Shown here: positions 1-39,070 of the stretch, one piece after another
How positions within the stretch are numbered: the stretch's first letter is position 1
Layout: each line of letters begins with the position of its first letter
NCBI GenBank assembly: GCA_965203905.1
Contig: CBDBDQ010000005.1
Location: 1,952,001-2,016,000 of the forward strand
Direction of reading: 5' to 3'
From: Spirochaetia bacterium
GTDB taxonomy: Bacteria; Spirochaetota; Spirochaetia; SZUA-6; Bin103
Length of the DNA stretch: 64,000 bases
Notes under the pieces: generated by a model
Database searches by the model: none
Told to the model about the DNA's origin: nothing
What the model saw: the letters and a program-made list of their open reading frames with translations, nothing else
Position numbers and translations under genes: made by a program

Positions 1-2
1 CC

Positions 3-377
3 CTAACAGGGCGCTACTACCTTGTGGTATCGTTTGGCCTGTTCCTCAGTTACGATCGCGCGCGCGTCGAAACTCGACCCGTCCGTGGGAGCGGCACCTT
101 TCCTTATACATCGTGATCGTGAATGCCTCGTGCGGCATCTCCTCGTAGTAGCCTGATCCGGCAGTAACTCTATCGACTCGATCACGAACTCATCGAAGTC
201 GCAGTGGATGGTCGTAGCGGCGGCGTGGTTGAAGCCGTGTTGCTGTAGGTCGGTGACGGAGCACATGCTGCACTCCACCAGCACGCGAGCCGTGTTCTCG
301 GTGAGCGGCATCACGCTCGTGCTGACGCAGCCCGACAAGACCAGAGTGGCAACCGCCGCGGCGAGCATTCGTCTCAT
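3..377 (-). CDS. Small predicted lipoprotein (possible compensating frameshifts)
   Basis: Signal peptide with lipobox LSGC and an AGGAG RBS. The Arg-rich middle reads more protein-like in another frame (VTAGSGYYEEMPHEAFTITMYK). Confidence 0.6.
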   Translation of the reverse strand: MRRMLAAAVATLVLSGCVSTSVMPLTENTARVLVECSMCSVTDLQQHGFNHAAATTIHCDFDEFVIESIELLPDQATTRRCRTRHSRSRCIRKGAAPTDGSSFDARAIVTEEQAKRYHKVVAPC

Positions 378-448
378 CTTGACTCCTATCCGCCTCCCAG
401 AGGACTATGCTCCAATGAATCCTGGACGCCCCGGGCTCCCATGGCCGT

Positions 449-748
449 CTACAAGTTCTCAAATATGTCATTTGCCTGATAAAAGGTTATGGCCATGCAC
501 TTATCGCACTTGGCAGACACGAGAGGTCCTGTGGGAGGGGGGAATGACTGATAAGATCCGCCTTTCTTCCACGGCACCCGAACGCCCATCATCGTAACCA
601 GGACCGGCAGTATCCCACGGTCAAACGATTGGCAGGTGGGGCACGGATAGTTGCCATCCTGCTCTATCCATCTCTGAATCTCTTCAACCCCTGCCGGGGT
701 AAGCACACCCTTGGTGTAGTCGTATGTACGTTTATCCAGGACAGCCAC
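449..748 (-). CDS. Small zinc-ribbon-like protein
   Basis: CPTC...CDKC Cys pairs; GGAGG RBS upstream of GTG; non-repetitive composition. Confidence 0.6.
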   Translation of the reverse strand: MAVLDKRTYDYTKGVLTPAGVEEIQRWIEQDGNYPCPTCQSFDRGILPVLVTMMGVRVPWKKGGSYQSFPPPTGPLVSAKCDKCMAITFYQANDIFENL

Positions 749-810
749 TGGCTTCCTCCATCAGTAGCCCTCGGGGCAGTCGAACACGAACAGGTGTCAT
801 CAATTACCGC

Positions 811-1563
811 TCACTGCAGGTCGATGGTCCTGAGCCGGTCGCCTTCCGACACCAGCAGCTTCGTCCCTGCCGCGTCCCCGTCCAGATCCGTGATGTAGCG
901 AGTCGTAGCCTGCTCCAGCGCCCGCAGCCTGCTGTGTGGCTTGGCCTTAGTGAATGCGTAGATCGTCGCTTGATTCGCGCAGTGCACGAAGATGGTCGAG
1001 TCGTTCGCGTGCAACGCCTCGGGATCCGTGCACCCAGCCGACCGCAGCGTGCTCTTGGTCACATCCCTGGAGCTGACCCGGCTTCCGTTGGACCGCCGAA
1101 AGGCGAACAGCTGCTCGGGGCCGTCGTTGTCTCCGCTGTTCGAGATCCAGATGGTGTTGGCGTCACCTGAGATCCCGCCGGGAATGGTGAAGTCCTCGTC
1201 GCTGAAGTCGAACGAGTCGAGCTGTTTCCCGTCGGAGATCCGAAATCGGAGGATGTCGTCGTTCCCGCTGTCCAGCACGTAGAGGGTGTCGCCGTAGCCC
1301 CAGATGCCCTCCATGCGGCCCACGGCGGAGATGTCGAACTGGCGGCCGCCGTCGAGCTTGCTGCCCGTCGCGTCCGCCTGGAACGCGGTGTACTGCGTCG
1401 CGGCCCACAGGGTGCCGTCCGCGGCCATCCAGATCCCGCGCGGGTGGGAGGTGTCCACTCGTGTGGAGGATCCTCCTGGCTGGTCGCATCCGCCAACCAA
1501 AACTAGAACCACGACGAGCCCCAGCATTAGGGCCGTCCCTTTGCACCACTGGTGATCGCGCAT
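811..1563 (-). CDS. Secreted lipoprotein with beta-propeller-like repeats
   Basis: AGGAGG RBS before ATG 1563; hydrophobic stretch + GGC lipobox; repeated GIW/GIS..D.TLW/TLY/TIW blades. Confidence 0.7.
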   Translation of the reverse strand: MRDHQWCKGTALMLGLVVVLVLVGGCDQPGGSSTRVDTSHPRGIWMAADGTLWAATQYTAFQADATGSKLDGGRQFDISAVGRMEGIWGYGDTLYVLDSGNDDILRFRISDGKQLDSFDFSDEDFTIPGGISGDANTIWISNSGDNDGPEQLFAFRRSNGSRVSSRDVTKSTLRSAGCTDPEALHANDSTIFVHCANQATIYAFTKAKPHSRLRALEQATTRYITDLDGDAAGTKLLVSEGDRLRTIDLQ

Positions 1564-2455
1564 CAGTAGTCCTCCTGTGTCGCCCGCACCCACAGGCGCC
1601 GGGCCGAGTTGAACAGACACACCGATCTCGCGATTGGTTGGGTTCTGGCTATTCACTCCAAGGCCGGGTAGCTACTCCCTGCCTGCACGGAGCTGTTGTA
1701 TTGACCAGCGACCCGGCATGAGCGAGTCGATGCGTCTGTTCAGGGTGACATTGTGTCGATGCCGGAGGCGTTGTTCAAGCAGACCACACGAACGAACGGG
1801 TACGAACGGAAGTCTCGCTATCAGTCCAGGCGTCGGGTCAGTGGCCAGTTACACGAGGCAGCGCCCTTGATGCCGTCCTGCACGCTTTTGCCGATGATTA
1901 CACCGCCGGTTGATCGTCGAAGCGGTGATCATCGTGGTGCCTTGCGCTGGGCACCGGCATGCCCCACCTGGCCGCGCCGTGGCTGCCGCTCGGGGGTCTG
2001 GCCGTGTGGCTGACCTGCTTCCTGGCGATGCGCGTCTACGTGGTCGGCATCCGCCGCCTCGGCGCTGCCGAGTGGGCCACTGCCGGCGCCGGCGCCGCGC
2101 TGGCGGCCGGGGCGCTCCTGATCGGGACCCGTGCGGACGCTGGCGTTGTTCATCCTCTCTCGAACGCTGCTCCTCTCTCTTGCGGCCCTCGGGTCGCTGC
2201 TGAAGGAACTGCACCTGCGCCGCGGCACCCGGCGCGCACCCGTAACTTTTACGAAACCGCGACGGAGACGTTTCTCCGAGGTGCGGCGGGATTGACGGTC
2301 GAGCATCCAGCATGCCGTCAATACGATCCAGCCTCGTCGTCCATTCCGAGACGGTCGCTATCGCAGGACGGCTTGATTCCCTCACCACCCGGCGCTTCCT
2401 TGTCGGCCCCGACCGATTCGCCTCTCGTGCCCGTCTCTACCAAGGGCGCAGCACG

Positions 2456-3037
2456 CTAAAAGGCAATCCCGAGGTCTACTCCCAAGCCGATCGATGGGCC
2501 GCCCACGCTGAATTTGCCCTTGATGTCAGCAGTATCCGCGAACACATGGTGATAGCCCGCCTGCAGCCGCGGAGTGATCGCCACTGGCCCCCACAAGACT
2601 CGGTACCCGAAGTGGGCGCGGGCGCCGATCTGCACCGCGTCCACCACGCTGCTTTGGTACCGCGCGTGGAGGTAACCGGACTCCAGCGAGACGCCCGCAA
2701 ACAGGCCGAGCGGGGCGCGCTCGGTCAGAAAGTAGTGGGCGCCGACGGCGCCGCCCAGGCTCCACAGCTCATAGTCGTCGGCATCCACCCCCACCACTTC
2801 GATCAGAGCGCCGGTCAGGCTACCCTTCGCGTTGAAGTAGGTCGCCACCACGACGATGCTCCAGTGCTGATCCAGCGCCAGCTCCAGTGATCCGCTGTAG
2901 ACCCCGAACAACGGGCCCATCAAGTTGACCCCCGCGATGCCGCTTACCGGCTGCTCCTGGGCGAATCCCGGGATAGCCGCGGCCATGCTGCCGGCTGCCA
3001 CCAGCACGGCAATGACTCTGAAGCGGTTGCACCTCAT
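2456..3037 (-). CDS. Outer-membrane beta-barrel-like protein (DUF3575-like)
   Basis: Signal peptide ending GFA-QEQ; amphipathic beta strands; C-terminal LGIAF (terminal Phe). Confidence 0.65.
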   Translation of the reverse strand: MRCNRFRVIAVLVAAGSMAAAIPGFAQEQPVSGIAGVNLMGPLFGVYSGSLELALDQHWSIVVVATYFNAKGSLTGALIEVVGVDADDYELWSLGGAVGAHYFLTERAPLGLFAGVSLESGYLHARYQSSVVDAVQIGARAHFGYRVLWGPVAITPRLQAGYHHVFADTADIKGKFSVGGPSIGLGVDLGIAF

Positions 3038-3149
3038 GTGATACCTACTTGGCCGGCGAGGGACAGGAACAGTTCGGCACGGGGCTGGTTTCTCCTTTGG
3101 CTTGCGATCAGGCCATGTTGCCATGTTGGCACCGACAGATATCCAGATC

Positions 3150-4230
3150 GCCTGACCCGGTGCCCATTCCTCGAGCTCCTGGTCCATCGCGGCGACGGCA
3201 AGGGGAATCTGGGACTGGAAGAACCTGCGCGAGTAGCCATTCTTCAGCGCCCGCCGAAGCTGGAAGTGGTCCGCGCCGTCCAGCCCGGTGACCACGCGGG
3301 CGTACCCACCTCGTGGGCGAATCCGGACCACTGCTCCCAGGAGCGCAGGTGCGTCTTGCCCTCCCGTACCATGAACACGTTGGCTTCCCGACCCGCCAGA
3401 ACAAGCAGCCTACGGCCCGGCGCCTGGACCTCGAAGATCGGCCCGTGGCGCCGGTACTGCTCGGTCAGGTAAGCACGCAGGTTCCCCATGAGCTGCAGCG
3501 CATGGCCCAGCACGGGCAGCCGGCCTGAGGCCACCGGCCAGCCGCCACCGGCGCGCCGGATCCGCTGGCGCAGCTCCTCCCGGTAGGCGACGCTTACCTT
3601 GCGAACCGCGCCGGTCACCGACTGCCCAATCAGGTCCAGCCGCGCCACCAACGTGATTCGCTCCTGCAACTCTGCATACTCGGAGGGGGTGAGAATCCGC
3701 TCGAAGGCGCCGCAGGCGTGGGCGAGGCTGACGATGCACACTTCCTCCGGCGTCGGAACATCCTCAGTGAACAGGACGCCCATGATCCGGTCGCGGATCT
3801 CTCGCTCCTGTTCCTCATCGACAACGGGATAGCGCCGGGTGCGCGACACTCGGGGTGTCAGAGAGAAGATGCCACCGCCATCGTCGGTGTCCAGGATCCC
3901 GCGCTGCACCAGCCGGGCCAGCGCTCTGGTTTGCAGTTGGTCGGCGTTCCCGGCAACCCGGCGCACCCAGAAGTCGGCGGGCAGGTTCGGGTGCGCCGCC
4001 ACGACGGCATCGATGTCGGCCAGAATCGGATCCAGCAGGTCATCGCCGGTAGCGGTGGAATCCAGCAGGATGAGGGCGCTCGGGTCGGTGTCGATCCTGC
4101 CTTCAAGGGACAGATCCATCAGCGCCGCCCCGGCCAGGGCGTATCCAAGGATGCGGTCCGGGACATCGGAGAAGTCGCCGGTCTTCTCGTCCAACAGCAA
4201 GAGCAACAGCTCTTCAGCTAATCGCAGCAT
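3150..4230 (-). pseudogene. GPP34 (GOLPH3/Vps74) domain fused to a frameshifted, truncated cytochrome P450
   Basis: N-term LAEELLLLLLD...ALAGAALMDLSLEGRI (GPP34), then LPVLGHAL...YRRHGPIF (P450 N-term). Continues in another frame near 3300 as GLDGADHFQLRRAL. No heme-Cys motif. Confidence 0.7.
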
Positions 4231-4593
4231 GTGTTACCGGCCTTCACGGTCAGCCGCGGGTCGGTAGCCGGCGTAGCGGCCGTAACCGGTTTCGTCTCCC
4301 GGTCCAACTCCGCGCGACTGCTGGCATCAGTTGTCCAGTCTCTCCTCGATGCGCTGAAGCGTGGTCGTCCACAAGGGTCGATTAGGCGGACCCCGAATCG
4401 CCTTTGTGAAACGGTTGCACCATCCCCCGTGAGATCCCCTTTGACCTGGGGGGCCTCTTGACGGCAGTTCGCCGAGCGCATTATAGATGGGCTATTGTGA
4501 GATCAGCATGATGAAGCAGGCTATAGTTCGTGATTTTCCGTGATATGTTCAGTAAACTGCCGCTTCGAAGGCCTGTCCGGAGGATGACCAGCG

Positions 4594-6948
4594 ATGCAGA
4601 GCCCTGACGACTGTGAGCAAGGCAACAACGCGCTGCACGAGCGCATCTCCGCCCTGAGCGCGGCAATTCTGCGCATCAGCGACAGCCTCGACCTCGACAC
4701 CGTGCTGCGCGAGGTGGTAGCCGGAGCCCGCGCGCTCACCCGCGCCCGCATCGGCGTCATCGCGACAATCGACGACGCCGGACAGCCCCTGGACTTCGTC
4801 AGCTCGGGCATCTCCGCCGACGACCACCGGCAGCTCGAGGCCTGGCCTGACGGGCCACGCCTGTTCGAGCATATCCGTGACCTTCCCTCACCCTTCCAAC
4901 TCAGCGACCTGTCCGCTTTCGTGCGCGGGCTTGGTTTCTCCGCAGATCTGGTGCCCTGGAAGAGCATTGTGGGTACCGCGATGCGCCATCGGGGTGTGCA
5001 TGTCGGCAGCTTCTACCTCACCGACAAGGAAGGCGGGCGCAAGTTCACCAACGAGGACGTGGAAGTCCTCGTCCTGTTCGCTTCGCAGGCAGCCGCCGCA
5101 GTCGCCAACGCTCGCACCTACCGCAACGAGCTGCGCGCGCGGACCAAGCTCGAGGCACTGATCGACACCTCCCCAGTCGGCGTCGCGGTCTTCGATGCCA
5201 AGACGGGAACCTTGACCTCCATCAATCGCGAGGCGCAGCGGATTGTCAAAGTCCTGTGCGGCCCGGGCCAGTCTCCGGCAGAGCTGTTGCACGTGATCAC
5301 CTGGCGCCGCGCCGATGGCAGCGAGATTACGCTGGACCGACTCCTGACCTCGGAGCTGAATACCGCCGCCAAGGTACGCGCAGAGGAATTCGTGCTCTCG
5401 GTCCCCGACGGCCGCAGCGTTACCACGCTGGTCAACGCGACGCCGATCCACTCCGCCGATGGCGCTGTCGAGTCGTTGGTCGTCACTGTGCAGGATCTGG
5501 CACCGCTCGAAGAGCTGGAGCGCTCGCGTGCCCAATTCCTGAGTATGGTGAGCCATGAACTGCGCGCGCCGCTGACCTCCATCAAGGGATCAGCCGCCAC
5601 CGTCCTGGGCGCCACTCAGCCCCTGGAATGGGCCGAAGTCCTGCAGTTCTTCCGCATTATCGACGACCAGGCCGATCACATGCGCGGCTTGACTGCCGAC
5701 CTGCTCGATGTGGGTCGCATCGACACCGGCACCATCACAATCGTCCCCGAGCCGTCGGAGGTGACCGCCTTGGTGGAGCAGGCGAGGAACACGTTCCTCA
5801 GCGGCGGCGGCCGGCACGCCGTCTCCATTGACCTGCCGCCGGACCTGCCTCAGGTGAAGGCTGACCGGCGCCGCATCGTCCAGGTCCTGAATAACCTCTT
5901 TTCCAATGCCTCCCAGCATTCCCCGACCTCATCCCCGATCCGGGTCGCCGCGGTGCAAGAGGCGGTGCACGTGGCGATTTCGGTCTCCGACCAAGGCAGG
6001 GGCATGCCGCAGGAGCGGCTTTCGCAGCTGTTTCGGAAACACATCGGTGTCGGGGACGCGGAGCGCGGACTCGGCAGCTCCGGCTTGGGACTCGCCATCT
6101 GCAAGGGGTTGGTGGAAGCCCACGGTGGCCGCATCTGGGCCGAGAGCGCCGGTGAGGGCCAGGGCATGCGGGTCACCTTCACGATTCCTGTAGCGGACAC
6201 CGCCGCCGGCTCGGCGCGCGAACTCGCCCCAAGCAGGTCGCGCGCGTGGGAAGGACCCGAGGCGACACGCATCCTCGTGGTAGACGACGATCCGCTGATG
6301 CTGCGCTACGTGCGCGACGCACTCGCCGCCGCGGGCTACGACCCGATCGTCACCGGTGACCATCAGGAGTTGGCCCACATCATCCGCCTCGAGAGGCCCC
6401 AGTTGATCGTACTGGACCTGGTGCTGCCGGGGACCGATGGGATCAAGCTGATGGAGCAGCTCCCCGAACTGGCCGATCTACCGGTCATCTTCATCTCCGG
6501 CTACGAAGGCGGCGAGACTATCGCCAAGGCTCTGGAGACCGGCGCCGCCGACTATATCGTCAAGCCGTTCTCGGCGACCGAGCTCACGGCGCGCATCAAC
6601 GCGGCGCTACGCCGGCGCACCGAACCCGAACCGGGCGAACCGTTCGTCTTGGAGGGGCTCTCCATCCACTACCTGGAACGCCGCGTGACCGTGGCGAATC
6701 GCGAGGTAAAGCTGACGGCGACCGAATACGAATTGCTGCGCGTACTCTCGGTCAACGCGGGGCGCCTGATGACCTACGACGACCTGCTGCGCCATGTGTG
6801 GCGCCTGCCCCACTCAGGCAGCTCGGAGCGGGTTCGCACTCTCGTGAAGACTCTGCGCCGCAAGCTCGGTGATGTCCCCACCAAGCCCACCTATATCTTG
6901 ACCGAGCGCGGGGTCGGCTACCGCATGCCCCGACCGAGCGAGCCGTGA
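4594..6948 (+). CDS. Hybrid sensor: GAF-PAS-HisKA-HATPase-REC-OmpR-type winged helix
   Basis: H-box SHELRAPLTSI; N-box NNLFSNA; G-boxes DQGRG and GLGLAI; REC ILVVDDD...LDL...KPF; C-term LTATEYELL...TLRRKLG...ERGVGY. Confidence 0.9.
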   Translation: MQSPDDCEQGNNALHERISALSAAILRISDSLDLDTVLREVVAGARALTRARIGVIATIDDAGQPLDFVSSGISADDHRQLEAWPDGPRLFEHIRDLPSPFQLSDLSAFVRGLGFSADLVPWKSIVGTAMRHRGVHVGSFYLTDKEGGRKFTNEDVEVLVLFASQAAAAVANARTYRNELRARTKLEALIDTSPVGVAVFDAKTGTLTSINREAQRIVKVLCGPGQSPAELLHVITWRRADGSEITLDRLLTSELNTAAKVRAEEFVLSVPDGRSVTTLVNATPIHSADGAVESLVVTVQDLAPLEELERSRAQFLSMVSHELRAPLTSIKGSAATVLGATQPLEWAEVLQFFRIIDDQADHMRGLTADLLDVGRIDTGTITIVPEPSEVTALVEQARNTFLSGGGRHAVSIDLPPDLPQVKADRRRIVQVLNNLFSNASQHSPTSSPIRVAAVQEAVHVAISVSDQGRGMPQERLSQLFRKHIGVGDAERGLGSSGLGLAICKGLVEAHGGRIWAESAGEGQGMRVTFTIPVADTAAGSARELAPSRSRAWEGPEATRILVVDDDPLMLRYVRDALAAAGYDPIVTGDHQELAHIIRLERPQLIVLDLVLPGTDGIKLMEQLPELADLPVIFISGYEGGETIAKALETGAADYIVKPFSATELTARINAALRRRTEPEPGEPFVLEGLSIHYLERRVTVANREVKLTATEYELLRVLSVNAGRLMTYDDLLRHVWRLPHSGSSERVRTLVKTLRRKLGDVPTKPTYILTERGVGYRMPRPSEP

Positions 6949-7051
6949 CGGGAACCCTGGGCGGTCACGAGCGCTTGCTTGGTCTCGCTCGTGCGACCAG
7001 CTTACCAACCAGGGCCTGCGCCTTCCGTCTTGGTGCGCTCAGAGTGCCGGC

Positions 7052-7288
7052 TTACGCCTTCGGCAGCGCCTCCAACCATCGTTCGACATCCTCACGTCGC
7101 CAGCCGACGGCGCGTGACCCGTCGCCCCCGAGCCTGACTGGCGCAGGGAAGTCGCCAGCACGTACACGTCGCCATAGCGATGTGCGGGAAAGTCCTATCA
7201 AAGCCAGCACTGCTGGCGTTCGCAAGATTGCAGGAAGAGAATCACGGGCCGAAGCTGTCGGTCCGTTGGAGTAGGAGTGGTCGGGCAT
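7052..7288 (-). CDS. AlpA-family regulator / excisionase-like protein
   Basis: ILRTPAVLALIGLSRTSLWRRVRAGDFPAPVRLG..RAVGW signature; directly downstream of the integrase. Confidence 0.88.
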   Translation of the reverse strand: MPDHSYSNGPTASARDSLPAILRTPAVLALIGLSRTSLWRRVRAGDFPAPVRLGGDGSRAVGWRREDVERWLEALPKA

Positions 7289-7377
7289 CGGAAACCCCTA
7301 TAGGCCCTAAGGTGGGCGGCATGCACAATTAGTCATGTAGGAGTCAGTCCAACTTTCGCGTTTCACGGCGTGGCTTG

Positions 7378-8586
7378 TCAACCCGTGTCAGTCCGTCCTG
7401 TCCGTCCTAAATCCCCATCAGCTGGCAAGAGGTAGTCGCTCCACGCGTCCATGAGCTGCCGTCGCCGCTCGAACAGGTCGGAGCGCATATAAGCGCCTTC
7501 GACTCCGCCCACAACATGCGCAAGCGCCGCCTCGGCCAATTCCCTCGATTCGTCGTTCTCCGCGCACCAGGAACGGAACGACGTACGGAACCCGTGCATC
7601 GTGGCGTTGATGCCCAACCCGTTGAACAGCTTGCTCGTCGTCCTGTTCGCCATCGCCTTGCCGGTCGGTGACGGAAACAGCAGGCCCGAGCCATCGTCCA
7701 GCTTCTGCGCTTCGGCCAGCACTTCCAGCGCTTGCGTCGACAACGGTACCCGATGCTCACGGCCGGACTTCATTCTCTCGGCAGTCAAGGTCCACACCCC
7801 GGCAGGTAGATCGACCTCGCTCCAGGTGGCAAGCCGAGCCTCTCCCAATCGAGCCGCCGTCAAGATCGCGTACTCTATCAGCAGCTTGGTTCCTTGCCAC
7901 GCGGCGGACGCCCGGATCTTCGCAAGCGCCCCCGCCACCTCTCGATGATGAAGCGCCCGCCGGTGCCTCCTCGGGGCAGTCCCGTTCTTGGGCAGCACCT
8001 GCGAAATGGCGTCGCCGGCCGGATTGTCACTCCGATGCCCGGCGCCAATCGACCACCGCATCACCGCGCCTATCCGATGCCGCAGTCGCCTAGCGGTCTC
8101 GTGCTTCCCACCGTTCCAGATCGGCGTCAGCACGGACAGAATGTCAGCGCTGGTGATGGCGCCGATCGGCTTGCTCCCGATCAGCGGAGAGACGAACCGC
8201 CTGAACGATGAACGCCAGATGTCGGCGGTACGCGGATTACGCCAGGTGCTGGCGTGTATCTCGATGACAATCTCTGCCGCCTTGTCGAAGCTCGGTGTGG
8301 CTGATCCCTGCCTCGGGTCGTGCCCCTGGTAAACGGCCCGTGCGTTCTCCAGCGCCGCCTCCCGGGCTTCGGCCAGGTTGACGATAGGGAACGGGCCAAG
8401 CCCGACGTTGCATGGCTTGCCGTTGATCCGCAGCCGCTGGCTCCATGACTTGGCCACGCCGCCGTGTGCCCGCGGCTTCACCAGGAGGCTCAAGCCGTGC
8501 CCGCCGTGGCCGTCGCCGTAGCGGCCGGGTCGCTTGACGGTGCGGACGAAGGAAGCGCTCAGTCTCTTGGGACGTATCTGAGGCAT
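7378..8586 (-). CDS. P4-like tyrosine integrase with N-terminal arm-binding domain
   Basis: GLSLLVKP...GLGPFPIVNLAEARE arm domain; catalytic residues R (AARLGE), K (MKSG), HGFR, LAH, AY all intact. Confidence 0.93.
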   Translation of the reverse strand: MPQIRPKRLSASFVRTVKRPGRYGDGHGGHGLSLLVKPRAHGGVAKSWSQRLRINGKPCNVGLGPFPIVNLAEAREAALENARAVYQGHDPRQGSATPSFDKAAEIVIEIHASTWRNPRTADIWRSSFRRFVSPLIGSKPIGAITSADILSVLTPIWNGGKHETARRLRHRIGAVMRWSIGAGHRSDNPAGDAISQVLPKNGTAPRRHRRALHHREVAGALAKIRASAAWQGTKLLIEYAILTAARLGEARLATWSEVDLPAGVWTLTAERMKSGREHRVPLSTQALEVLAEAQKLDDGSGLLFPSPTGKAMANRTTSKLFNGLGINATMHGFRTSFRSWCAENDESRELAEAALAHVVGGVEGAYMRSDLFERRRQLMDAWSDYLLPADGDLGRTGRTDTG

Positions 8587-8605
8587 GGTCGCGGCCTTGA
8601 GTTGA

Positions 8606-8771
8606 TGCGGTGTACGGTTATCACTTACGGTAGCACCATATGCGTGAAAATATGCGGTATACGACGAAACGTCAAGCGACAGGCGATTGGCGTTAAATGA
8701 CGTGATATACGTTACTTAACAGAACAAAGTGGAACAACCGGAAACACCAATTCAGTAGCCTGTTCGACTAC
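8606..8771. promoter_or_regulatory. Putative attachment site (arm repeats + core)
   Basis: T(A/G)CGGT repeats at 8606, 8613, 8626 and 8653. Core GTAGC-CTGTTCG-ACTAC at 8755-8771 is an imperfect inverted repeat around a 7-bp spacer. Confidence 0.55.
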
Positions 8772-10178
8772 GCGGTGCGCGAGTTGGGCTACAGCGAGGG
8801 TGCCGCCTGGCGCCGCATAAAGGCTATGCGCCTGTGCTCCGATACCGACGGAACACGCGAGCGGCTGCAGGACGGCTCGCTCTCCCTGAGCGCGGCGGCG
8901 CAGTTGCAGAACACCTTCGATCTCCTGCAGCGCACGGCCACCGCCGCCGCGGACCCCGGCTCGGCACCCGCGGCACCGGAGCTGCTGCCGCTCGGCACGG
9001 GGCCGGCTCCGGAGGCGGGGGCTTCCGGGACCGGGGCAGCGGCGCCAGCGCGACCGGTGCCGGCGCTGAACGCGGCGCAGCGGCAGGAACTGGTGGCGCA
9101 GGCGAGCGGCAAGAGCACCCGCGAGGTGAAGCAGTTGTTGGCCGGGGTGGCTCCCGAGCTGGCGCGGCCGGCGGATCGCATGCGGGCGCTGGGCGAAGGC
9201 CGCTGGGAGCTGAAGGTGGCGATCGACTCCGCCTGTCAGTGCGGGATCGAGCAGCTACGGGCACTGCTGTCGCACGTGGACCCGCACCTGACGCTGGGGC
9301 AACTGGTGGAGCGGCTGGTGCAGGACGGGCTGCAGCGCTACGACCCGGGGCGACCGCCACGCGGGCGCAAGAGTGGGCGCGGGGAGGCGAGCGCGGGCCA
9401 GGCGCTGGAGCCGAAGACGCAGGAAGAGCCGGCGGGCGGGGCGACTTCGCCGGCGAAGCGGGGCGCGCAAGAGCAACCCGGAGTGCCGGCGCCGGAGGGC
9501 ACTATCACCGGTGGCAGCACCCCGGCGCCGGTAGCGCTGTCCGCAGAGGAACCCACGCGCGGGAATGGCGGCGCCGGCATCTCGGCGGTGGCAGCGCTGT
9601 CCGCGCCGCCGGCGGGGCGCGAGACTTGTGGCAGCACCCCGGTGAGTGCCAAGCCGGCGGTGGCGGCGCCCGGCACCACTCCTTCGGCGGCGAAGTTGGT
9701 GGCTGGTTGTGGGTCCCGCGTCTCCGTACCGACGCCACGGCCGACACCACCGGCAGTCCAGAGCATGCCAACCGCGCGGGCAGCGGCGGATCGCGGTCGC
9801 ATCGCTCCTTCGCCAGCGAAGCGGGCCGGGGCGGCGAAGCGGGCCGGAGCCGTGCAGGTCGATCGCCATTCGCGACCGCAGCCGGCGCCAGCCGGCCCGT
9901 CCGGAGGCAGCACGCAGCCGCCCCACCGGGCGCGTCGATCCCGGTATATTCCGGCACCAGTGCGGCGCGAGGTGTGGCGCCGCGACGGCGGCTGCTGCAG
10001 TTACGTCGATCGGCACAGCGGGCGGCGCTGCGGGTCCCGCTTCCTGCTGGAGCTCGACCACATCGTTCCCTTCGCGCTCGGCGGCAGCGCTGAGCCCGGG
10101 AACTTGCGCCTTCGCTGTCGAGCCCACCACCGCTTCCGGCATCGGGAGGACGCGCCGTCGCCAGACGGGGCCACGTGA
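8751..10178 (+). pseudogene. 5'-truncated HNH endonuclease, copy 1 (DUF222-like N-term, Pro/Ala linker, C-term HNH)
   Basis: Close paralog of 23397-25031 but begins at FSSLFDY and lacks the first 56 residues; in-frame stop upstream at 8703. HNH motif ELDHIVPFALGG...NLRLRCRAHH is intact. Confidence 0.8.
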
Positions 10179-10402
10179 TCGGCGCCCGGCGGGGTGCGAG
10201 GTGGGCGGTCGGGTGTCGGTCCGAGGGGATTTGCAGCCGGCTTGTCGCGCAGCGTGGGATAGTCCTGAAGGCTCACACAGGCGTCGTGTCCGCGTCCCAA
10301 TATCGTGATATGGTAATGTAGTGTACCCAGCGCCAATCTGGAAGCCGCCGCCCGCTACAAGGGCTGCGAATAGAGCCCGGTCGTTCGTAGTGAGACTGCA
10401 AT

Positions 10403-11506
10403 ATGAGTAATAGACTCAAGAAACTCACAGTAAAGGGATTCAAAACGGTCGCTTCATGCATTGATTTTGAGTTCGGATCGCTTACGGCTCTAATCGGCGC
10501 CAATGGCGCTGGGAAGTCGAACTTCATTTCTTTTTTTCGAATGCTGAGCTGGGCGCTTGCAGATCCCAATAACCTGGAGCGGTATGTAGGCCGACAGGGA
10601 GGTGCCAGCACCCTCCTACATGATGGTCCGAACAACACTCGAGAGATTGAAACCGAGATTACAATTGTCACGGATACGGGTACCAACCAGTACGCGTTTC
10701 GATTGGCCTATGCGGCGGGAGACACCTTTATATTTGATTACGAGCGTTACGAGTTCTCCCGTTCACCAGATACGGTTCCGTACCGGAACGAACTAGCGGT
10801 CGGAGGCCGTGCGCCACAGCTTCTTTACTTGGCTTCGTATGACAAGACTGCCCGTTTCCTACGCGATCTGCTGAGGCGTATAGTCGTATATCAATTCCAC
10901 AATACATCAGACACGGCACGGGTACGGGGAAGATGGACGATCGATGATAGCCGATGGCTGAAGGAGGATGCTGGTAATCTAGCGCCAGTCCTGCTGAGGC
11001 TAAGAGAGGATGAGGGTGTGTATTATCAGCGAATTGTGGAAACAATTCGCCTTATTCTTCCATTTTTTTCTGACTTTGAATTGAATCCCGATCATGGGAG
11101 TCTACTCCTTCAGTGGCGTGAGCGGGACCGCGATCAGGTGTTCGGAGCGCCCCAGGCAGCGGACGGTATGTTGCGTGCGATGGCTCTCGTTACGCTCCTG
11201 TTGCAGCCAGAACAGGATTTGCCGGACGTCCTGTTCATAGACGAACCTGAGCTTGGGCTGCACCCATACGCAATTAACCTCATCGGAGGCTTGATACGTT
11301 CCTTAGCGACCCGGATACAGGTCGTTGTTGCCACTCAATCGACTCAACTGATCGATTGCTTTGAACCGAGCGACGTTGTTGTCGTTGAACGCGAGCAACG
11401 TAGTTCCTCCTTCCGTCGATTGGATGCTGACCAGCTTGTCGACTGGCTAACAGACTACTCGCTCTCTGAGCTATGGGAGAAGAACGTGCTCGGCGGGCGC
11501 CCGTAG
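10403..11506 (+). CDS. ABC/AAA_21-type ATPase
   Basis: Walker A GANGAGKS; signature variant AADGM; Walker B FIDEPELGLHP; ATQS; lower GC. Confidence 0.88.
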   Translation: MSNRLKKLTVKGFKTVASCIDFEFGSLTALIGANGAGKSNFISFFRMLSWALADPNNLERYVGRQGGASTLLHDGPNNTREIETEITIVTDTGTNQYAFRLAYAAGDTFIFDYERYEFSRSPDTVPYRNELAVGGRAPQLLYLASYDKTARFLRDLLRRIVVYQFHNTSDTARVRGRWTIDDSRWLKEDAGNLAPVLLRLREDEGVYYQRIVETIRLILPFFSDFELNPDHGSLLLQWRERDRDQVFGAPQAADGMLRAMALVTLLLQPEQDLPDVLFIDEPELGLHPYAINLIGGLIRSLATRIQVVVATQSTQLIDCFEPSDVVVVEREQRSSSFRRLDADQLVDWLTDYSLSELWEKNVLGGRP

Positions 11507-23162: not shown

Positions 23163-23252
23163 AATCCACACGAAGGACGCACGCCAAGCGTCCGACTCAC
23201 TCGCTGGGTGCATGCGTGCCAAGCATCCGACTCACTCGCCGGGTGCATGCCT
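23163..23252. repeat. Intergenic 35-bp tandem repeat preceded by AATCCACACGAA
   Basis: Units 23183-23217 and 23218-23252 (GCCAAGCRTCCGACTCACTCGCYGGGTGCATGC..); the 12-mer is shared with 57311. Confidence 0.8.
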
Positions 23253-23396
23253 GTTCTGTGGCGGGGCACGAGGAGCGCAGCCGGTACCGGCAAGAAGCCG
23301 GCTCGCGGTCACCGTCCATCCCTGGCAGAGTGCACCCTGCACCACTCCCCGTACGACACCAAGCGCACTCGCCGCAGTCGCCGCGCGACCGGCCGC

Positions 23397-25031
23397 TCAC
23401 CTGGCCCCCGCGCGTCCCGAGCCACCCTCCGTATGGCGGTAGCGATGATGGGCTCGACAGCGGAGGCGCAAGTTGCCGGGCTCCGCACCGCCGCCGAGGG
23501 CGAAGGGAACGATGTGGTCGAGCTCCAGCAGGAAGCGGGAGCCGCAGCGCCGCCCGCTGTGCGGATCGACGTAACTGCAGCAACCACCGTCGCGCCGCCA
23601 CACCTCGCGCCGTACTGGTGCCGGAATGTAGCGGGATCGGCGCGCCCGGTGGGGCGGCTGCGCGCTGCCTGCGGAGGGGCCGGCTGGCGCCGCCTGCGGC
23701 CGCGAACGGCCATCGAGGTGCGCCCCTGCCGGCTTTGCCGCCCCTGCGAGCTGCGCCCCTGCGAGCTGCGCCCCTGCCCGCTGCGCCACCCCTGCCCGCT
23801 TCGCTGGCGAAGGCGCGTGGCGACCGCGATCCACCGCTGCCGTCGCGGTCGGCCTGCTCTGGTCTGCCGGCGGCGTCGGTACGGTGGCGTGGGCCCCACG
23901 ATCGGCCACCAACTTCGGCGCCGAAGGAGCGGTGCCGGGCGCTGCCGCCGCTGGCTTGGCACGCACCGCGGTGCTGCCGCCGCAAGTCTCGCGCCCCGCC
24001 GACGGCGCGGACAGCGTGGCCACCGCCGAGGTGTCGGCACGGCCAATCCCGCACGCGGGTTCCTCTACGGACAGCGCTTTCGGCGCCGGGGTGCTGCCAC
24101 CGGCGCTCGTGCCCGCCGGCGTCGGCGGCACACCGGGTTGCTCTTGCACGCCCCGCCTCGCCGGCGAAGTCGCCCCGCCTGCCGGCCCTTCCTGCGCCGT
24201 CGGCTCCGGCGCCTGGCCCGCGCTTGCCTCCCGGCGCCTACCTCTGCGCCCGCGCGGCGGCCGCCCCGGGTCGTAGCGCTGCAGGCCATCCTGGACCAGC
24301 CGCTCCACGAGCTGCCCCAGCGTCAGGTGCGGGTCCACGTGCGACAGCAGTGCCCGCAGCTGCTCGAGCCCGCACTGACAGGCAGAGTCGATCTCCACCT
24401 TCAACTCCCAGCGGTCCTCGCCCAGCGCCCGCATGCGATCAGCAGGGCGCGCCAGCTCGGGAGCCACCCCGGCCAACAACTGCTTCACCTCGCGGGTGCT
24501 CTTGCCGCTCGCCTGCGCCACCAGCTCCTGCCGCTGCGCCGCGTCCAGCGCCGGCACCGGCTGCGCTGGCGCCGCTGCCGCGGCCCCCGAAGCCCCCGCC
24601 TCCGGCGGCGTCCCCGTGCCGCCCGGCAGCAGCTCCGGTGCCGCGGGTGCGGAGCCGGAGTCCACGGCGGTGGTGGCTGTGCGCTGCAGGAGATCGAAGG
24701 TGTTCTGCAACTGCGCCGCCGCGCTCAGGGAGAGCGAGCCGTCCTGCAGCCGTTCGCGTGATCCGGCGGTCTCGGAGCACAGGCGCATGGCTTTGATACG
24801 GCGCCAGGCGGCACCTTCGCTGTAGCCCAGCTCGCGGACGGCGTAGTCGAACAGGCTGGAGAAGCCGAGGCGCAGGTGGAGGTGGCGGGCGTGGATCTCG
24901 CGCAGGTGGTCGAGGACGGCGAGTTGCAGCGCCTGCTCGTGCAGGACGAGGGACCTGGTATGCGCCAGCAGCACCTGGTCGGGGAGCCAGGACAGCGAGG
25001 AGGAGAAGCTGGTGGCGGTCGCGGCAGGCAT
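23397..25031 (-). CDS. HNH endonuclease, copy 2, full length (DUF222-like N-term)
   Basis: N-term helical LGFSSLFDYAVRELGYSE..AWRRI; middle WELKV..EQLRALLSH; C-term RDGGCC...ELDHIVP...NLRLRCRAHH. Confidence 0.88.
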   Translation of the reverse strand: MPAATATSFSSSLSWLPDQVLLAHTRSLVLHEQALQLAVLDHLREIHARHLHLRLGFSSLFDYAVRELGYSEGAAWRRIKAMRLCSETAGSRERLQDGSLSLSAAAQLQNTFDLLQRTATTAVDSGSAPAAPELLPGGTGTPPEAGASGAAAAAPAQPVPALDAAQRQELVAQASGKSTREVKQLLAGVAPELARPADRMRALGEDRWELKVEIDSACQCGLEQLRALLSHVDPHLTLGQLVERLVQDGLQRYDPGRPPRGRRGRRREASAGQAPEPTAQEGPAGGATSPARRGVQEQPGVPPTPAGTSAGGSTPAPKALSVEEPACGIGRADTSAVATLSAPSAGRETCGGSTAVRAKPAAAAPGTAPSAPKLVADRGAHATVPTPPADQSRPTATAAVDRGRHAPSPAKRAGVAQRAGAQLAGAQLAGAAKPAGAHLDGRSRPQAAPAGPSAGSAQPPHRARRSRYIPAPVRREVWRRDGGCCSYVDPHSGRRCGSRFLLELDHIVPFALGGGAEPGNLRLRCRAHHRYRHTEGGSGRAGAR

Positions 25032-25559
25032 GGCGTAAATATAATCATGGTTGAGAAATGACCGGTTGCGGCAAGTCCCGGGACGGGCACCGGGAAGGGC
25101 TCAGGCCGGCGCTGGCGGGGTGCTGGAGGGCCTGGAGGGCGTGGCGGGATATTCCAAGGGTCGGAGGGGCCCGAACGTGCGGCAGGGGGCCGCTATGAGC
25201 AGCGCCAAACCCGTCAAGTGCTCAGCGCACTTTTTTGGCTTTTTTTTTGGCAGAATCCTGCAACGTGGAGCCGACGTGGCAGCAGTGCACCGGCGGAGAA
25301 TGGCGTTGCGGGTGGGCGGCGACACGCTCATTCCTGGACACATAGTACAGCGAACGAACCACGCACCCTGCAGGTGGCGATCTGGCAGGGACCACGCCGG
25401 GGCCATCACCGCCGCTCGGCCACACACGTGATGCAGACGTTTCGTTCAGCATGGGATGGACCTGACTCTCTCGGACTCGCTCTCTCTCGGTGGACGGCGT
25501 GGGGCGCCGTGGGCGGCGCATGGGCGGCGTGCGGCGTGGCGGCGTGGCGGCGTGTGGGC

Positions 25560-25623: not shown

Positions 25624-25707
25624 GCCCGGATGGTGAAATTGGTAGACACGCTAGGTTCAGGGTCTAGTGGCCTTACGGCTGTGGAGGTTCGAGTCCTCTT
25701 CCGGGCA
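25624..25707 (+). tRNA. tRNA-Leu(CAG)
   Basis: Acceptor GCCCGGA/TCCGGGC; D-loop TGGTA; anticodon arm CTAGG-TTCAGGG-TCTAG; long variable arm; T-loop GTTCGAGTC; CCA not encoded. Confidence 0.96.
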
Positions 25708-37237: not shown

Positions 37238-38701
37238 CTACTCCTCCGCTACGCGAATGCGCTCCAGATCGTCGTTGAGCTCGCGCACCACCGCCGGGTT
37301 GTCGCAGTAGCGGTTGTAGACTTCTCCGGGATCGTCGGACATGTGGTAGAGCTGTCCGGGGCTGCCCGGCACCGGCCCGGAGCCGGCGCCGCCGTGGTTG
37401 CCGCGCCACACGTCGCCGGAGTCGTCGCACTCGACGATCAGCTTCCAATTGCCGGCGCGCTCGCTGGAGCGCAGCGAGAACACGCCGAGGCAGGAGTGGT
37501 GGACCAGGTGATCGCGCGCCGGACGCCCGCTCTCCCCGCGCAGCGCGGGCAACAGATCGACGCTGTCCACGGCAACCCCCTCGGGCAGCTCGGCGCCGAC
37601 GATGGCGGCGGCCGTGGCCATCAGGTCCTGGAGTCCCGCCAGCTCGTGGCACCCGCTCCCCGGCTCGATGGTGCCCGGCCAGCGCGCCAGGAACGGCTCG
37701 CGGTGGCCGCCGTCCCAGATGTGTCCCTTGTAGCCGCGCCAGTCGCCGCACGAGCGATGGCCGTAGGTGCGTCCCAGGCAGCCCGGCAGCGCGCCGTTGT
37801 CGCTGGTCACGACCAGCAGGGTGTCCTCAGCCAGCCCCAGCCGCTCCAGCGCATCCATCACCTGGCCCACCATCCAGTCGTACAGCCACACCATGTCGCC
37901 GCGTGGCCCGGCTTCGCTCTTGCCACGCGCAAAATCCGGAACCGCGCTCTCGATGCACGGCTCGTGCGGCGCCGAGGCGGCCAGGTACAGGAAGAACGGG
38001 GTGTCGGGTGAGGCGGCGCGCTGCTCCAGGTACTGGAGCGCCGTGCGGGTGAAGGTCGGATCGACCTCCTTGTGCCGCCAGCCCGGCACCATCAGGCCGT
38101 CACGGCCGCCCGGCTCGATGTCGGCCTTGCGCAGCGAGGGGATGCCCACCATGCGGTCGCCGTCGATGAACCCGTACGGAGGTTGCGCGGTGGCGCAGCC
38201 GGAGGTGCCGAAGAAGCGGTCGAAGCCCAGCTCCAGCGGCCCGCCGGTGATCGGCCTGGCGAAGTCGATCTTGGCTTCCTCGGCGGCCGGCGGAGGTGGG
38301 CTGGGCCACGGCAACTCGCGGTCCAGCAGCGAGAAGCGCTCGCCCTCCCGTACTCCCCAGCCGAGGCCCAGGTGCCACTTGCCGACGCAGGCCGTGTGGT
38401 AGCCGTGCTCGCGCAGCAGCGATGCCAGCGTCGGCCGCTCCGGCTCGATCAGTGGCAACTCGTAGTTGTACAGCACTTCCTCCCTGAGCGCGCTGCGCCA
38501 GCAGTAGCGGCCGGTCAACAGGCCGTAGCGGGTCGGCGTGCAGACCGCGGACGGCGAGTGCATGTCGGTGAAGCGCATCCCCTGGCGCGCCAGGCGGTCC
38601 ATGTTGGGGGTGGGAATCCTGGAGTCGCGGTTGTAGCAGCCCGGATCCCCGTACCCCATGTCGTCGGCAAGGAGGAAAACGATGTTCGGCAAGCGTTTCA
38701 C
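37238..38701 (-). CDS. Arylsulfatase (formylglycine-dependent)
   Basis: PNIVFLLADD, CTPTR, GKWHLG, SDNG. Confidence 0.93.
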   Translation of the reverse strand: MKRLPNIVFLLADDMGYGDPGCYNRDSRIPTPNMDRLARQGMRFTDMHSPSAVCTPTRYGLLTGRYCWRSALREEVLYNYELPLIEPERPTLASLLREHGYHTACVGKWHLGLGWGVREGERFSLLDRELPWPSPPPPAAEEAKIDFARPITGGPLELGFDRFFGTSGCATAQPPYGFIDGDRMVGIPSLRKADIEPGGRDGLMVPGWRHKEVDPTFTRTALQYLEQRAASPDTPFFLYLAASAPHEPCIESAVPDFARGKSEAGPRGDMVWLYDWMVGQVMDALERLGLAEDTLLVVTSDNGALPGCLGRTYGHRSCGDWRGYKGHIWDGGHREPFLARWPGTIEPGSGCHELAGLQDLMATAAAIVGAELPEGVAVDSVDLLPALRGESGRPARDHLVHHSCLGVFSLRSSERAGNWKLIVECDDSGDVWRGNHGGAGSGPVPGSPGQLYHMSDDPGEVYNRYCDNPAVVRELNDDLERIRVAEE

Positions 38702-38746
38702 GATGAAACATCATAACGCCAGATCGCGCTCTCGTTGACCGCCGTA

Positions 38747-38775
38747 TTGACATCGTAACTACTGGCCGGTATCCT
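38747..38775 (+). promoter_or_regulatory. sigma70 promoter of brnTA
   Basis: TTGACA-17 bp-TATCCT, ending 7 nt before the GTG. Confidence 0.7.
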
Positions 38776-38782
38776 CCATCGG

Positions 38783-39070
38783 GTGCACTTCGAATGGGAT
38801 CAGCGCAAGAATCGCACAAACCAGCGCAAGCACGGAGTCTCATTCGAGGAGGCCTCGGAGGTGTTCGGAGATCCGCTGCATCTGAGCTGGCTGGACGAAC
38901 GGTTCTCAGCCTTCGAGGAACGTTGGGTGACGATCGGGCAGACCGGGAACGGCCTGACGCTTACCGTCGCCAACCTGTTCTTCGACACGAATGGCGAAGG
39001 AATCGTGCGACTGATCTCCGCACGCAGAGCGACACCTCGGGAGCAACGACAATATGAAGAATCGATCTGA
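38783..39070 (+). CDS. BrnT family toxin
   Basis: FEWD..KN..N..KHGVSFEEA...EERW..IG...RLISARRA. Confidence 0.93.
   Translation: MHFEWDQRKNRTNQRKHGVSFEEASEVFGDPLHLSWLDERFSAFEERWVTIGQTGNGLTLTVANLFFDTNGEGIVRLISARRATPREQRQYEESI

Follow-up and report, generated by a model that had tools for sequence, protein, structure and literature searches.

The stretch analyzed here (hereafter the window) comprises 64,000 nucleotides of a Spirochaetia bacterium genome (contig CBDBDQ010000005.1, positions 1,952,001 to 2,016,000), and near its left end an integrase gene abuts a gene for an HNH endonuclease that lacks its 5′ part. The integrase, a P4-type tyrosine recombinase of 402 amino acids encoded on the minus strand at 7378..8586, is transcribed away from its attachment site and toward the interior of an island. 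The next gene on the same strand (7052..7288) encodes an AlpA-like small helix-turn-helix protein, presumed to be an excision regulator or directionality factor. On the other side of the integrase gene (int), 170 bp of noncoding and comparatively AT-rich DNA (8587..8756) form the int-side arm of a former attP and contain a promoter-like site for int. The arm ends at a 15-bp core, AGCCTGTTCGACTAC (8757..8771, plus strand), the attR copy of a repeat found at both ends of this island and of three related ones. The same core opens the displaced 3′ part of HNH copy 1, which runs from codon 59 to the stop codon (8757..10178, plus strand), has its HNH domain at the C terminus, and matches residues 56 to 542 of an intact copy at 84%. 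That intact copy (copy 2, 544 amino acids) lies in the same window at 23397..25031 on the minus strand and represents an unoccupied attB, with its core at 24843–24857; upstream of it, a conserved leader of about 430 nt (25032..25461, minus strand) was recognized from coverage and conservation profiles over ~45 to 55 copies. We conclude with high confidence that window positions 1 to 8771 are the right end of an integrative island, E1, that was placed by its P4-type tyrosine integrase at the 15-bp core of a multicopy HNH repeat, and that related islands reuse this site. The preliminary description of the locus, made from the window alone, had proposed such a use of a multicopy HNH gene as attachment site, and the split gene, the duplicated core, and its recurrence in four islands bear the proposal out.

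Measured from core to core, E1 is 66,750 bp long (C5:1894022–1960771 of the window's own genome, G000), so that the window holds its right, integrase-bearing 8.77 kb while the left 57,979 bp precede window position 1. The 15-bp core is present at both ends, identical at 15 of 15 positions (window 8757 and C5:1894022), and as a 15-mer it occurs twice in the window compared with 0.06 occurrences expected by chance. A missing 5′ half of the HNH gene with a second core had been predicted upstream, and both are found 66.7 kb away at C5:1894022, where the HNH leader and codons 1 to 58 end in ...LRRGFSSLFDY with the second AGCCTGTTCGACTAC core. The order at this left junction is HNH 5′ fragment, core, island arm, and the order at the right junction is island arm, core, HNH 3′ part. 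Joining the two halves in silico, as excision would, rebuilds a full-length, in-frame HNH open reading frame (ORF) of 531 amino acids. E1 thus has what is expected of a site-specific island: a direct repeat of the core at both ends, a precisely split target, and halves that join in frame. Its extent also agrees with its base composition, as the GC content of E1 and two sister islands is 61.6 to 63.0% (E1 63.0%) versus 66.3% for the genome, and with the adjacency of its flanks in three related species. These data refine several details of the preliminary description. The arrangement of alpA, int, and HNH gene that it reported is real, but the 3-kb element that it delimited (7052..10178) is the right end alone of an element of 66.75 kb. 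Identity between HNH copies 1 and 2 does start abruptly next to the integrase, but at the AGC of position 8757 (170 bp away from the start codon of int) and not at a TTC at 8751, ~165 bp away. The TTC AGT that precedes the core is island DNA, reading ATATAGT in E2 and TTTTAGT in E3, and because these letters differ among the islands, the in-frame F-S that they encode in E1 is a matter of chance. The core corresponds to codons 59 to 63 (SLFDY) as numbered on copy 2, and 58 codons rather than 56 are missing. From 8757 to 10149, copy 1 is 85 to 92% identical to copy 2 (23426–24857) in inverted orientation.

To place E1 among its relatives, we searched the genome with copy 2 and obtained 92 matches, three of which begin at residue 56; besides the copy in the window, these lie at C5:4.749 Mb and on a separate contig, C3. 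Three short N-terminal HNH fragments lie on the same strand as these truncated copies, at distances of 67 to 70 kb, and delimit E1 and two further islands in other HNH copies of G000, E2 (67,689 bp) and E3 (70,263 bp, core to core), whose integrases are 90 to 91% identical to that of E1 (tblastn). A fourth island, E4 (66,569 bp), lies in a genome of another species of the same genus (G001) and has an integrase of 83% identity and the same core at both ends. Island size is therefore nearly constant (66.6–70.3 kb). In each of the four islands the core is identical at 15 of 15 positions at both ends, the identity block being 15 bp generally and 17 to 18 bp in E1. Homologues of the integrase had been predicted to abut the FSSLFDY codons, and all four intact integrases of at least 83% identity do adjoin the core, ~160 to 175 bp away and in the same orientation. 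E1, E2, and E3 share a single layout, consisting of the HNH leader and codons 1 to 58, the core, an arm, the body of the island, alpA and int, an arm of ~170 bp, the core, and the HNH gene from codon 64 onward; alpA directly follows int in all three. HNH homology in E1 to E4 ends on the attL side at the last base of the core or at most 3 bp from it, and on the attR side exactly at the first base of the core. In silico excision of E1, E2, and E3 yields HNH ORFs of 531, 494, and 508 amino acids, respectively. The DNA common to pairs of these islands amounts to 6,941, 16,696, and 6,075 bp (9–25% of an island), and they are therefore separate elements and not assembly duplicates; their 4-kb chromosomal flanks show no mutual similarity. 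E4 has almost nothing in common with E1 to E3 at the DNA level except the int region, and its HNH 5′ fragment is far more divergent than theirs. A further attL (HNH 5′ fragment, core, and conserved distal arm) is present, with identical sequence, in two metagenome records. A decayed fourth integrase of G000 (C5:5363460–5364901) retains 79% identity over residues 136 to 341, contains a stop codon, and lacks the N terminus; it adjoins an HNH fragment beginning near residue 295, and the attachment junction appears to have been lost by deletion.

Free sites greatly outnumber occupied ones. The genome contains 49 exact cores, of which 43 lie in uninterrupted HNH copies, three are attL, and three are attR. 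When HNH members were selected by protein alignment alone, the exact core was present in 44 of 53 N termini; seven others, members of a second subfamily, read AGCTTG..., and two carry single variants, with AGCCTT... in one copy. Five related genomes have 9 to 17 exact cores each, compared with none in a reversed-sequence control. The 43 unoccupied cores and the three islands residing together in one chromosome fit the idea, raised in the preliminary description, that the HNH family supplies several safe landing pads. A second idea raised there, that excision might act as an on/off switch for a nuclease, is consistent with the rebuilt 531-amino-acid ORF but is not supported as a switch, because 43 other uninterrupted copies stay in the genome and toggling the split one would change little.

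The target is itself a repeat. In the window, the HNH unit spans ~2.1 kb (23326–25461, minus strand), made up of the ~430-nt leader, the ORF, and a tail of ~70 nt, and ~50 copies exist in the genome. Pfam gave weak HNH matches to the protein (PF01844, E = 4.6e-4, 20.7 bits versus a cut-off of 21.4) and no match to DUF222 at E ≤ 1, placing the family outside the REP13E12 or DUF222-HNH group. Rfam searches of copy 2 with its leader gave no match to the unit, the sole match being a flanking tRNA. The HNH family occurs in 20 of the 23 other genomes of the bacterial family and in none of 37 genomes sampled from seven other families of the order. Among 8,000 candidates scored from metagenome assemblies, 1,484 were relatives at E ≤ 1e-5, and the best 120 listed are all unnamed. 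The HNH unit looks like an uncharacterized mobile element. This view agrees with related genomes, in which the flanks of the HNH::E1 composite (the right flank being window position 10402 onward) are separated by 212, 97, and 222 bp in G001, G004, and G006, respectively, with neither an HNH unit nor an island between them. Because the flanks adjoin there without an HNH gene, we conclude that the 2.1-kb unit is itself an insertion and that E1 is nested inside it; in a further relative (G007), the flanks enclose 3.6 kb of other DNA, again with no HNH gene. Another comparison is available for E3, whose upstream flank and HNH 5′ part are 98.3% and 98.8% identical, respectively, to a C5 locus at 5.06 Mb holding an uninterrupted HNH copy. 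From these identities, the two loci appear to be an occupied and unoccupied pair between very close strains. Of note, the unoccupied 5.06 Mb allele is the sole copy with the core variant AGCCTTTTCGACTAC. The islands are thus seen in the integrated state with perfect repeats, at a site that is reused, in a genome where other sites are free, and with empty loci in relatives.

All three domains of the integrase exceed their Pfam cut-offs: the arm-binding domain Arm-DNA-bind_3 (PF13356, E = 4.2e-11, residues 9–93), Phage_int_M (PF22022, E = 8e-24, residues 100–192), and the catalytic Phage_integrase domain (PF00589, E = 7.4e-15, residues 216–359). The NCBIfam model PRK09692 also matches at E = 1.2e-37, but with 129.5 bits versus a cut-off of 434. 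The catalytic residues of tyrosine integrases follow the order R...K...HxxR...H/W...Y, and by eye the translation offers candidate stretches for them (ARLGE, MKSGREH, MHGFRTSFRSW, and GAYMRSD). The AlpA-like protein belongs to Phage_AlpA (PF05930, E = 3.3e-11, 43.3 bits versus a cut-off of 21) and matches the PHROG annotated as excisionase and transcriptional regulator (E = 9.9e-12). The int-side arm is conserved among E1 to E4 (85% mean column identity, four sequences), with the invariant blocks GTTATCACTT, AGCACCATATG, GAAACGTCAAG, GTTACTTAAC, and GAAACAC, and its promoter-like element for int is TTGACG-17-TATTTT on the minus strand (8675–8647). The distal arm measures ~100 to 130 bp, has 81% mean column identity over five sequences, and contains the invariant block CGTTATTGCT.TCGCAACCCCTTG. 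Repeated arm-type sites were not found, in that no 7- or 8-mer is present at least twice in each of three attP reconstructions; the word GTTAY recurs in both arms and is at most a candidate arm site. The T(A/G)CGGT repeats that had been suggested as arm sites are not conserved among the four islands. An inverted repeat reported at the junction (GTAG...CTAC) is present in the attR of E1 to E3, but it is just 4 bp long and absent from E4 and from attB.

In our reading, a classical tyrosine-recombinase reaction joined a long island attP (int-side arm, core, and distal arm) to a minimal attB, namely the core in an HNH copy. Insertion split one HNH copy, leaving the leader and codons 1 to 63 at attL and codon 59 to the end beside int at attR with the core duplicated, and the AlpA-like protein would promote excision. 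Several related islands can be present in one chromosome because the HNH family offers dozens of equivalent, apparently dispensable attB sites. We infer that this integrase catalyzes the reaction, that excision is AlpA-promoted, that the islands may be active today, and that they may move between cells.

Several observations weigh against our interpretation and have to be set beside the alternatives. One is that each island has a second tyrosine recombinase, located centrally in every case (in E1 at island positions 37950–39059, 369 amino acids, Phage_integrase E = 1e-29), and crediting the reaction to the integrase beside the att site therefore relies on the position and the arm-binding domain of that enzyme. 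It is conceivable that the central recombinase performs the integration and that the att-adjacent integrase is a passenger or serves another site, given that a Phage_integrase-domain protein of 354 to 396 amino acids is common to all four islands and that extra fragments of this type occur in E1, E2, and E3. We consider this improbable for the following reasons: The P4-type integrase lies ~160 to 175 bp from the core in the same orientation in all four islands. It has an N-terminal arm-binding domain, which Pfam does not detect in the central recombinase, and conserved DNA separates its gene from the core. Finally, it is distant homologues of this integrase, and not of the central recombinase, that sit directly at other split genes. 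The central recombinase could serve in multimer resolution or be part of a nested element, and it could also be the actual integrase.

Further points against our interpretation concern E3, which lies on the separate contig C3 (106,776 bp) and has, on its right, an HNH part that is mosaic between two copy lineages. C3 matches distant chromosomal loci at 97 to 99% (C5:5055886–5060489 and C5:2963344–2968684), the right flank of E3 leading to the 2.97 Mb locus. Because the HNH mosaic and the flanks of E3 match two distant loci, C3 may be either a strain variant rearranged between inverted HNH copies or a partly chimeric assembly. Such recombination among HNH copies raises a second alternative, in which one ancestral HNH::island insertion spread by homologous recombination or gene conversion among the copies. 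In addition to the mosaic beside E3, the 98%-identical blocks shared by E1 and E3 and the presence of HNH copies 1 and 2 as inverted repeats 13 kb apart speak in its favor. Spread of this kind would not readily account for 4-kb flanks of E1, E2, and E3 that are mutually unrelated, for islands that share merely 9 to 25% of their DNA, or for the ending of HNH homology, in every one of the four islands, at the core or no more than 3 bp from it, and E4, from a different species, sits between two exact copies of this 15-bp repeat in a much more divergent HNH copy. We therefore regard this alternative as very unlikely. Almost certainly wrong is the notion that the HNH core is a secondary site mimicking a T-loop-like, tRNA-type GTTCGA, the normal target being a tRNA or tmRNA gene: the core does include GTTCGA, and a passage of one report describes P4-type integrases as mostly targeting tRNA and tmRNA genes (PMC4383910), but all four islands with an integrase of at least 83% identity and one metagenome junction lie in HNH genes, each of the 49 exact cores in the genome belongs to an HNH copy or an island end, and the attachment sides of 13 integrase loci from the 24 family genomes searched have no tRNA.

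The remaining points that speak against integrase-mediated insertion at the HNH core are the following. The core is not the best-conserved word of the target, ranking 13th of 376 15-mers over the first ~390 nt of the gene; it is kept in 41 of 50 uninterrupted copies, compared with 22 for the median 15-mer of the same region. In E4, the alpA homologue sits 30 kb from int. Neither an excised circle (attP) nor an E1-specific restored attB was recognized in the public runs searched, which consist of contigs as opposed to raw reads. Loose contig ends at 8757 read as 5′ parts of other HNH copies and are expected with or without excision. A pattern scan for the core and distal arm gave no match in viral contigs and two records in metagenome contigs, which are of the attL type and not attP. 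The same search bears on the possibility, raised earlier, of a chimeric junction: short-read contigs of two runs from one study, possibly of the source sample, cross position 8757 and reach 49 and 67 letters into the HNH part with 3 and 0 differences, respectively. The junction is therefore no assembly chimera confined to this record. We additionally found no transfer machinery, as relaxase, coupling protein, and type IV secretion Pfam families are absent among the scanned ORFs of E1 to E4, many of which match no family, such that divergent genes are possible.

These scans covered most of the predicted genes. For E1, a GC3-based script called 67 ORFs (small or atypical genes may be missed), of which 66 were searched against Pfam (63 together, int and the kinase gene, and one border-spanning ORF) and 59 against PHROG. 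For E2 to E4, 91 of the 95 ORFs of at least 140 amino acids were searched against Pfam at E ≤ 1e-5, the others being three integrases and the E3 kinase homologue. The islands share a backbone of the P4-type integrase, the second tyrosine recombinase (354–396 amino acids), DUF6197, RadC, SSB, and a primase-helicase, the last represented by VapE and D5_N in E1, VapE in E3, and PriCT_2 in E4. The attL-proximal ends vary by island and hold restriction or defense-type genes: two N6/N4 methylases, McrBC, and a methylase-HNH fusion in E1; a DUF499/DUF7680/DUF1156 set in E2; a TaqI_C/N6_Mtase/Eco57I-type enzyme in E3; and type I HsdM and HsdR in E4. Insertion sequence elements, a group II intron, and, in E1, E2, and E3, further Phage_integrase-type fragments are also present. 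The PHROG matches of E1 are to replication and integration functions, with all "tail fibre" matches falling on one protein that has Pfam collagen repeats. With no conjugation genes found among the scanned ORFs of E1 to E4, the islands do not classify as integrative and conjugative elements, and with no capsid or terminase family among them and sizes of 67 to 70 kb, they do not classify as prophages or as satellites of the P4 or phage-inducible chromosomal island (PICI) type.

Two cargo genes of E1 lie within the window, a GPP34-domain gene (3244..4230, minus strand; PF05719, E = 7.7e-39) and a gene for a fused GAF-PAS histidine kinase and OmpR-type response regulator identified by Pfam (4594..6948, plus strand; 784 amino acids), whose product is 99% identical to its E3 counterpart. 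Both genes fall in a 3.8-kb block (window 3148–6958) that is 98% identical between E1 and E3, compared with 80 to 96% identity or no relationship in the remainder of the islands. This local identity points to recent exchange between co-resident islands.

To define the range of targets used by integrases of this group, we surveyed 24 genomes of the bacterial family and 37 genomes of seven other families of the order. Homologues were found at 13 loci in 6 of the 24 family genomes, all of them large (6.4–8.0 Mb), and in none of the 37 others. Four of these loci (83–100% identity to the E1 integrase) have the HNH core, codons 59 to 63, on the attachment side, and the decayed locus (79% identity) has the HNH fragment with its junction deleted. 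One locus, in a genome of another genus (G022; 45–48% identity), has an HNH gene from this family that is split near codons 231 to 235; its element (L047, G022:C1:2479501–2492500) is ~9.9 kb long with the imperfect repeat CGTGGA(T/C)CCGCG and thus defines a second attachment site in the HNH family. Two loci (59–60% identity) lie at a second multicopy gene family, both at ...PDVVLEVDS (L040 and L041; compare G004:C5:146838–148633). This family has 15 to 29 matches per genome, and a full-length member gave a sub-threshold match to Uma2 (PF05685, E = 7.5e-6, 26 bits versus a cut-off of 27), which we take to be a putative restriction endonuclease family. At G001:C1:2485527–2554615, the halves of a split Uma2-like gene are 68.5 kb apart, again an island of ~67 to 70 kb. 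For the other five loci, of various identity, we identified no split target: Pfam searches of the gene fragments beside the integrases of L035, L036, L037, L042, and L043 recognized none, and tblastn with the Uma2-like protein gave nothing significant in L035, L036, L037, L038, L042, or L043. No tRNA lies on the attachment side at any of the 13 loci, against the placement at tRNAs that had been named as a possible refutation; 12 have no tRNA call at all, and the sole call, a 93-nt "tRNA-Ile" in L035, is on the far side of int. We tentatively propose, although we stop just short of favoring it, that within this bacterial family the integrase clade has specialized on multicopy, self-spreading nuclease genes (HNH at codon 59, HNH at about codon 231, and Uma2-like) as self-renewing safe harbors. 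If so, several 67-kb defense islands could pile up in one chromosome, and the repeat copies would become hot spots for large rearrangements.

Comparison with known systems shows which features are shared and which are distinct. Like P4 and CP4-57-type islands, the present ones combine the same integrase architecture with an adjacent AlpA-like gene, an inward-transcribed int beside the attachment site, a short direct repeat at the ends, long conserved attP arms, and a VapE/D5-type primase-helicase. In contrast to those islands, the target here is a protein gene that exists in ~50 copies and is left split, not the 3′ part of a tRNA or tmRNA gene that the island rebuilds, the islands measure 67 to 70 kb, and no capsid-redirecting or other phage genes were found. 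The likeness to P4 is limited to the integrase/AlpA module and the VapE-type primase-helicase.

A parallel for the repeated target is REP13E12, which presumably encodes a DUF222-HNH protein. As with the mycobacterial prophage-like element phiRv1 and REP13E12, the attB of a mobile element here is a repeated chromosomal sequence, with several alternative sites per genome. The present system differs in its tyrosine integrase with arms and a 15-bp block, in an HNH family with no match to DUF222, in its host lineage, in a far higher copy number, and in having three co-resident islands. Thus far, phiRv1 is the nearest analogue for the use of a repeated element as attB, a likeness of role and not of family; it lies in a REP13E12 repeat and uses a serine recombinase, as stated in a passage of PMC9317374. 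Helper-embedded PICIs offer another comparison, in that a clade of tyrosine integrases (with AlpA) repeatedly prefers the genes of another mobile element, according to a passage of PMC10111431. Similarly, sister integrases here have two different sites in the HNH repeat and target, in addition, a multicopy Uma2-like nuclease family. The target here, however, is no helper prophage, no helper relationship is apparent, and because the targets are multicopy, integration delays or controls nothing obvious; the islands are also ~5-fold larger than a PICI-like satellite (~10–15 kb) and carry defense cargo. A last comparison is with regulated gene integrity, in which an island excises and restores the gene that it interrupted, and for which Mageeney et al. 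(2020) is reportedly the founding paper. In silico excision does restore a full-length HNH ORF here, but the 43 uninterrupted copies make the split one redundant, and we see no evidence of regulated excision. The literature that we searched, exclusive of published lists of island targets, which may contain such cases, gave no description of tyrosine-integrase islands directed at a family of HNH genes.

The targets of tyrosine-integrase islands are usually seen as single genes, essential and highly conserved, such as those for tRNAs, that are repaired on entry. Here, the target is a redundant and apparently selfish gene family that needs no repair, which would remove the cost of insertion and multiply the available sites. 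This would explain the co-residence of three related islands of ~67 kb, each with defense genes, and the multicopy sites may help to explain the large size (6.4–8.0 Mb) of every genome that carries such an integrase. Practically, the system could provide an integrase whose 15-bp core is defined and for which natural landing pads abound in an uncultured, host-associated lineage. Island finders centered on tRNA or single-copy genes will miss such elements, and the HNH repeat unit, as an uncharacterized mobile element in its own right, merits study.

We also noted features in the surroundings of the two HNH copies of the window. Copies 1 and 2 are inverted repeats 13.3 kb apart, and homologous recombination between them could invert the segment 10179–23396. 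Directly to the right of the HNH unit that holds E1 lies a gene for an AAA_21 (AbiEii-like) ATPase (window 10403–11506, plus strand), which is matched by a gene at the empty locus in G001 but by none in G004 or G006. Beside copy 2, the tRNA gene found by Rfam lies ~160 nt past the leader (window 25624–25700, plus strand; 30.5 bits, the match being cut by the end of the searched stretch), and just downstream of the copy are two tandem 35-nt repeats (window 23183–23252) that are 91% identical.

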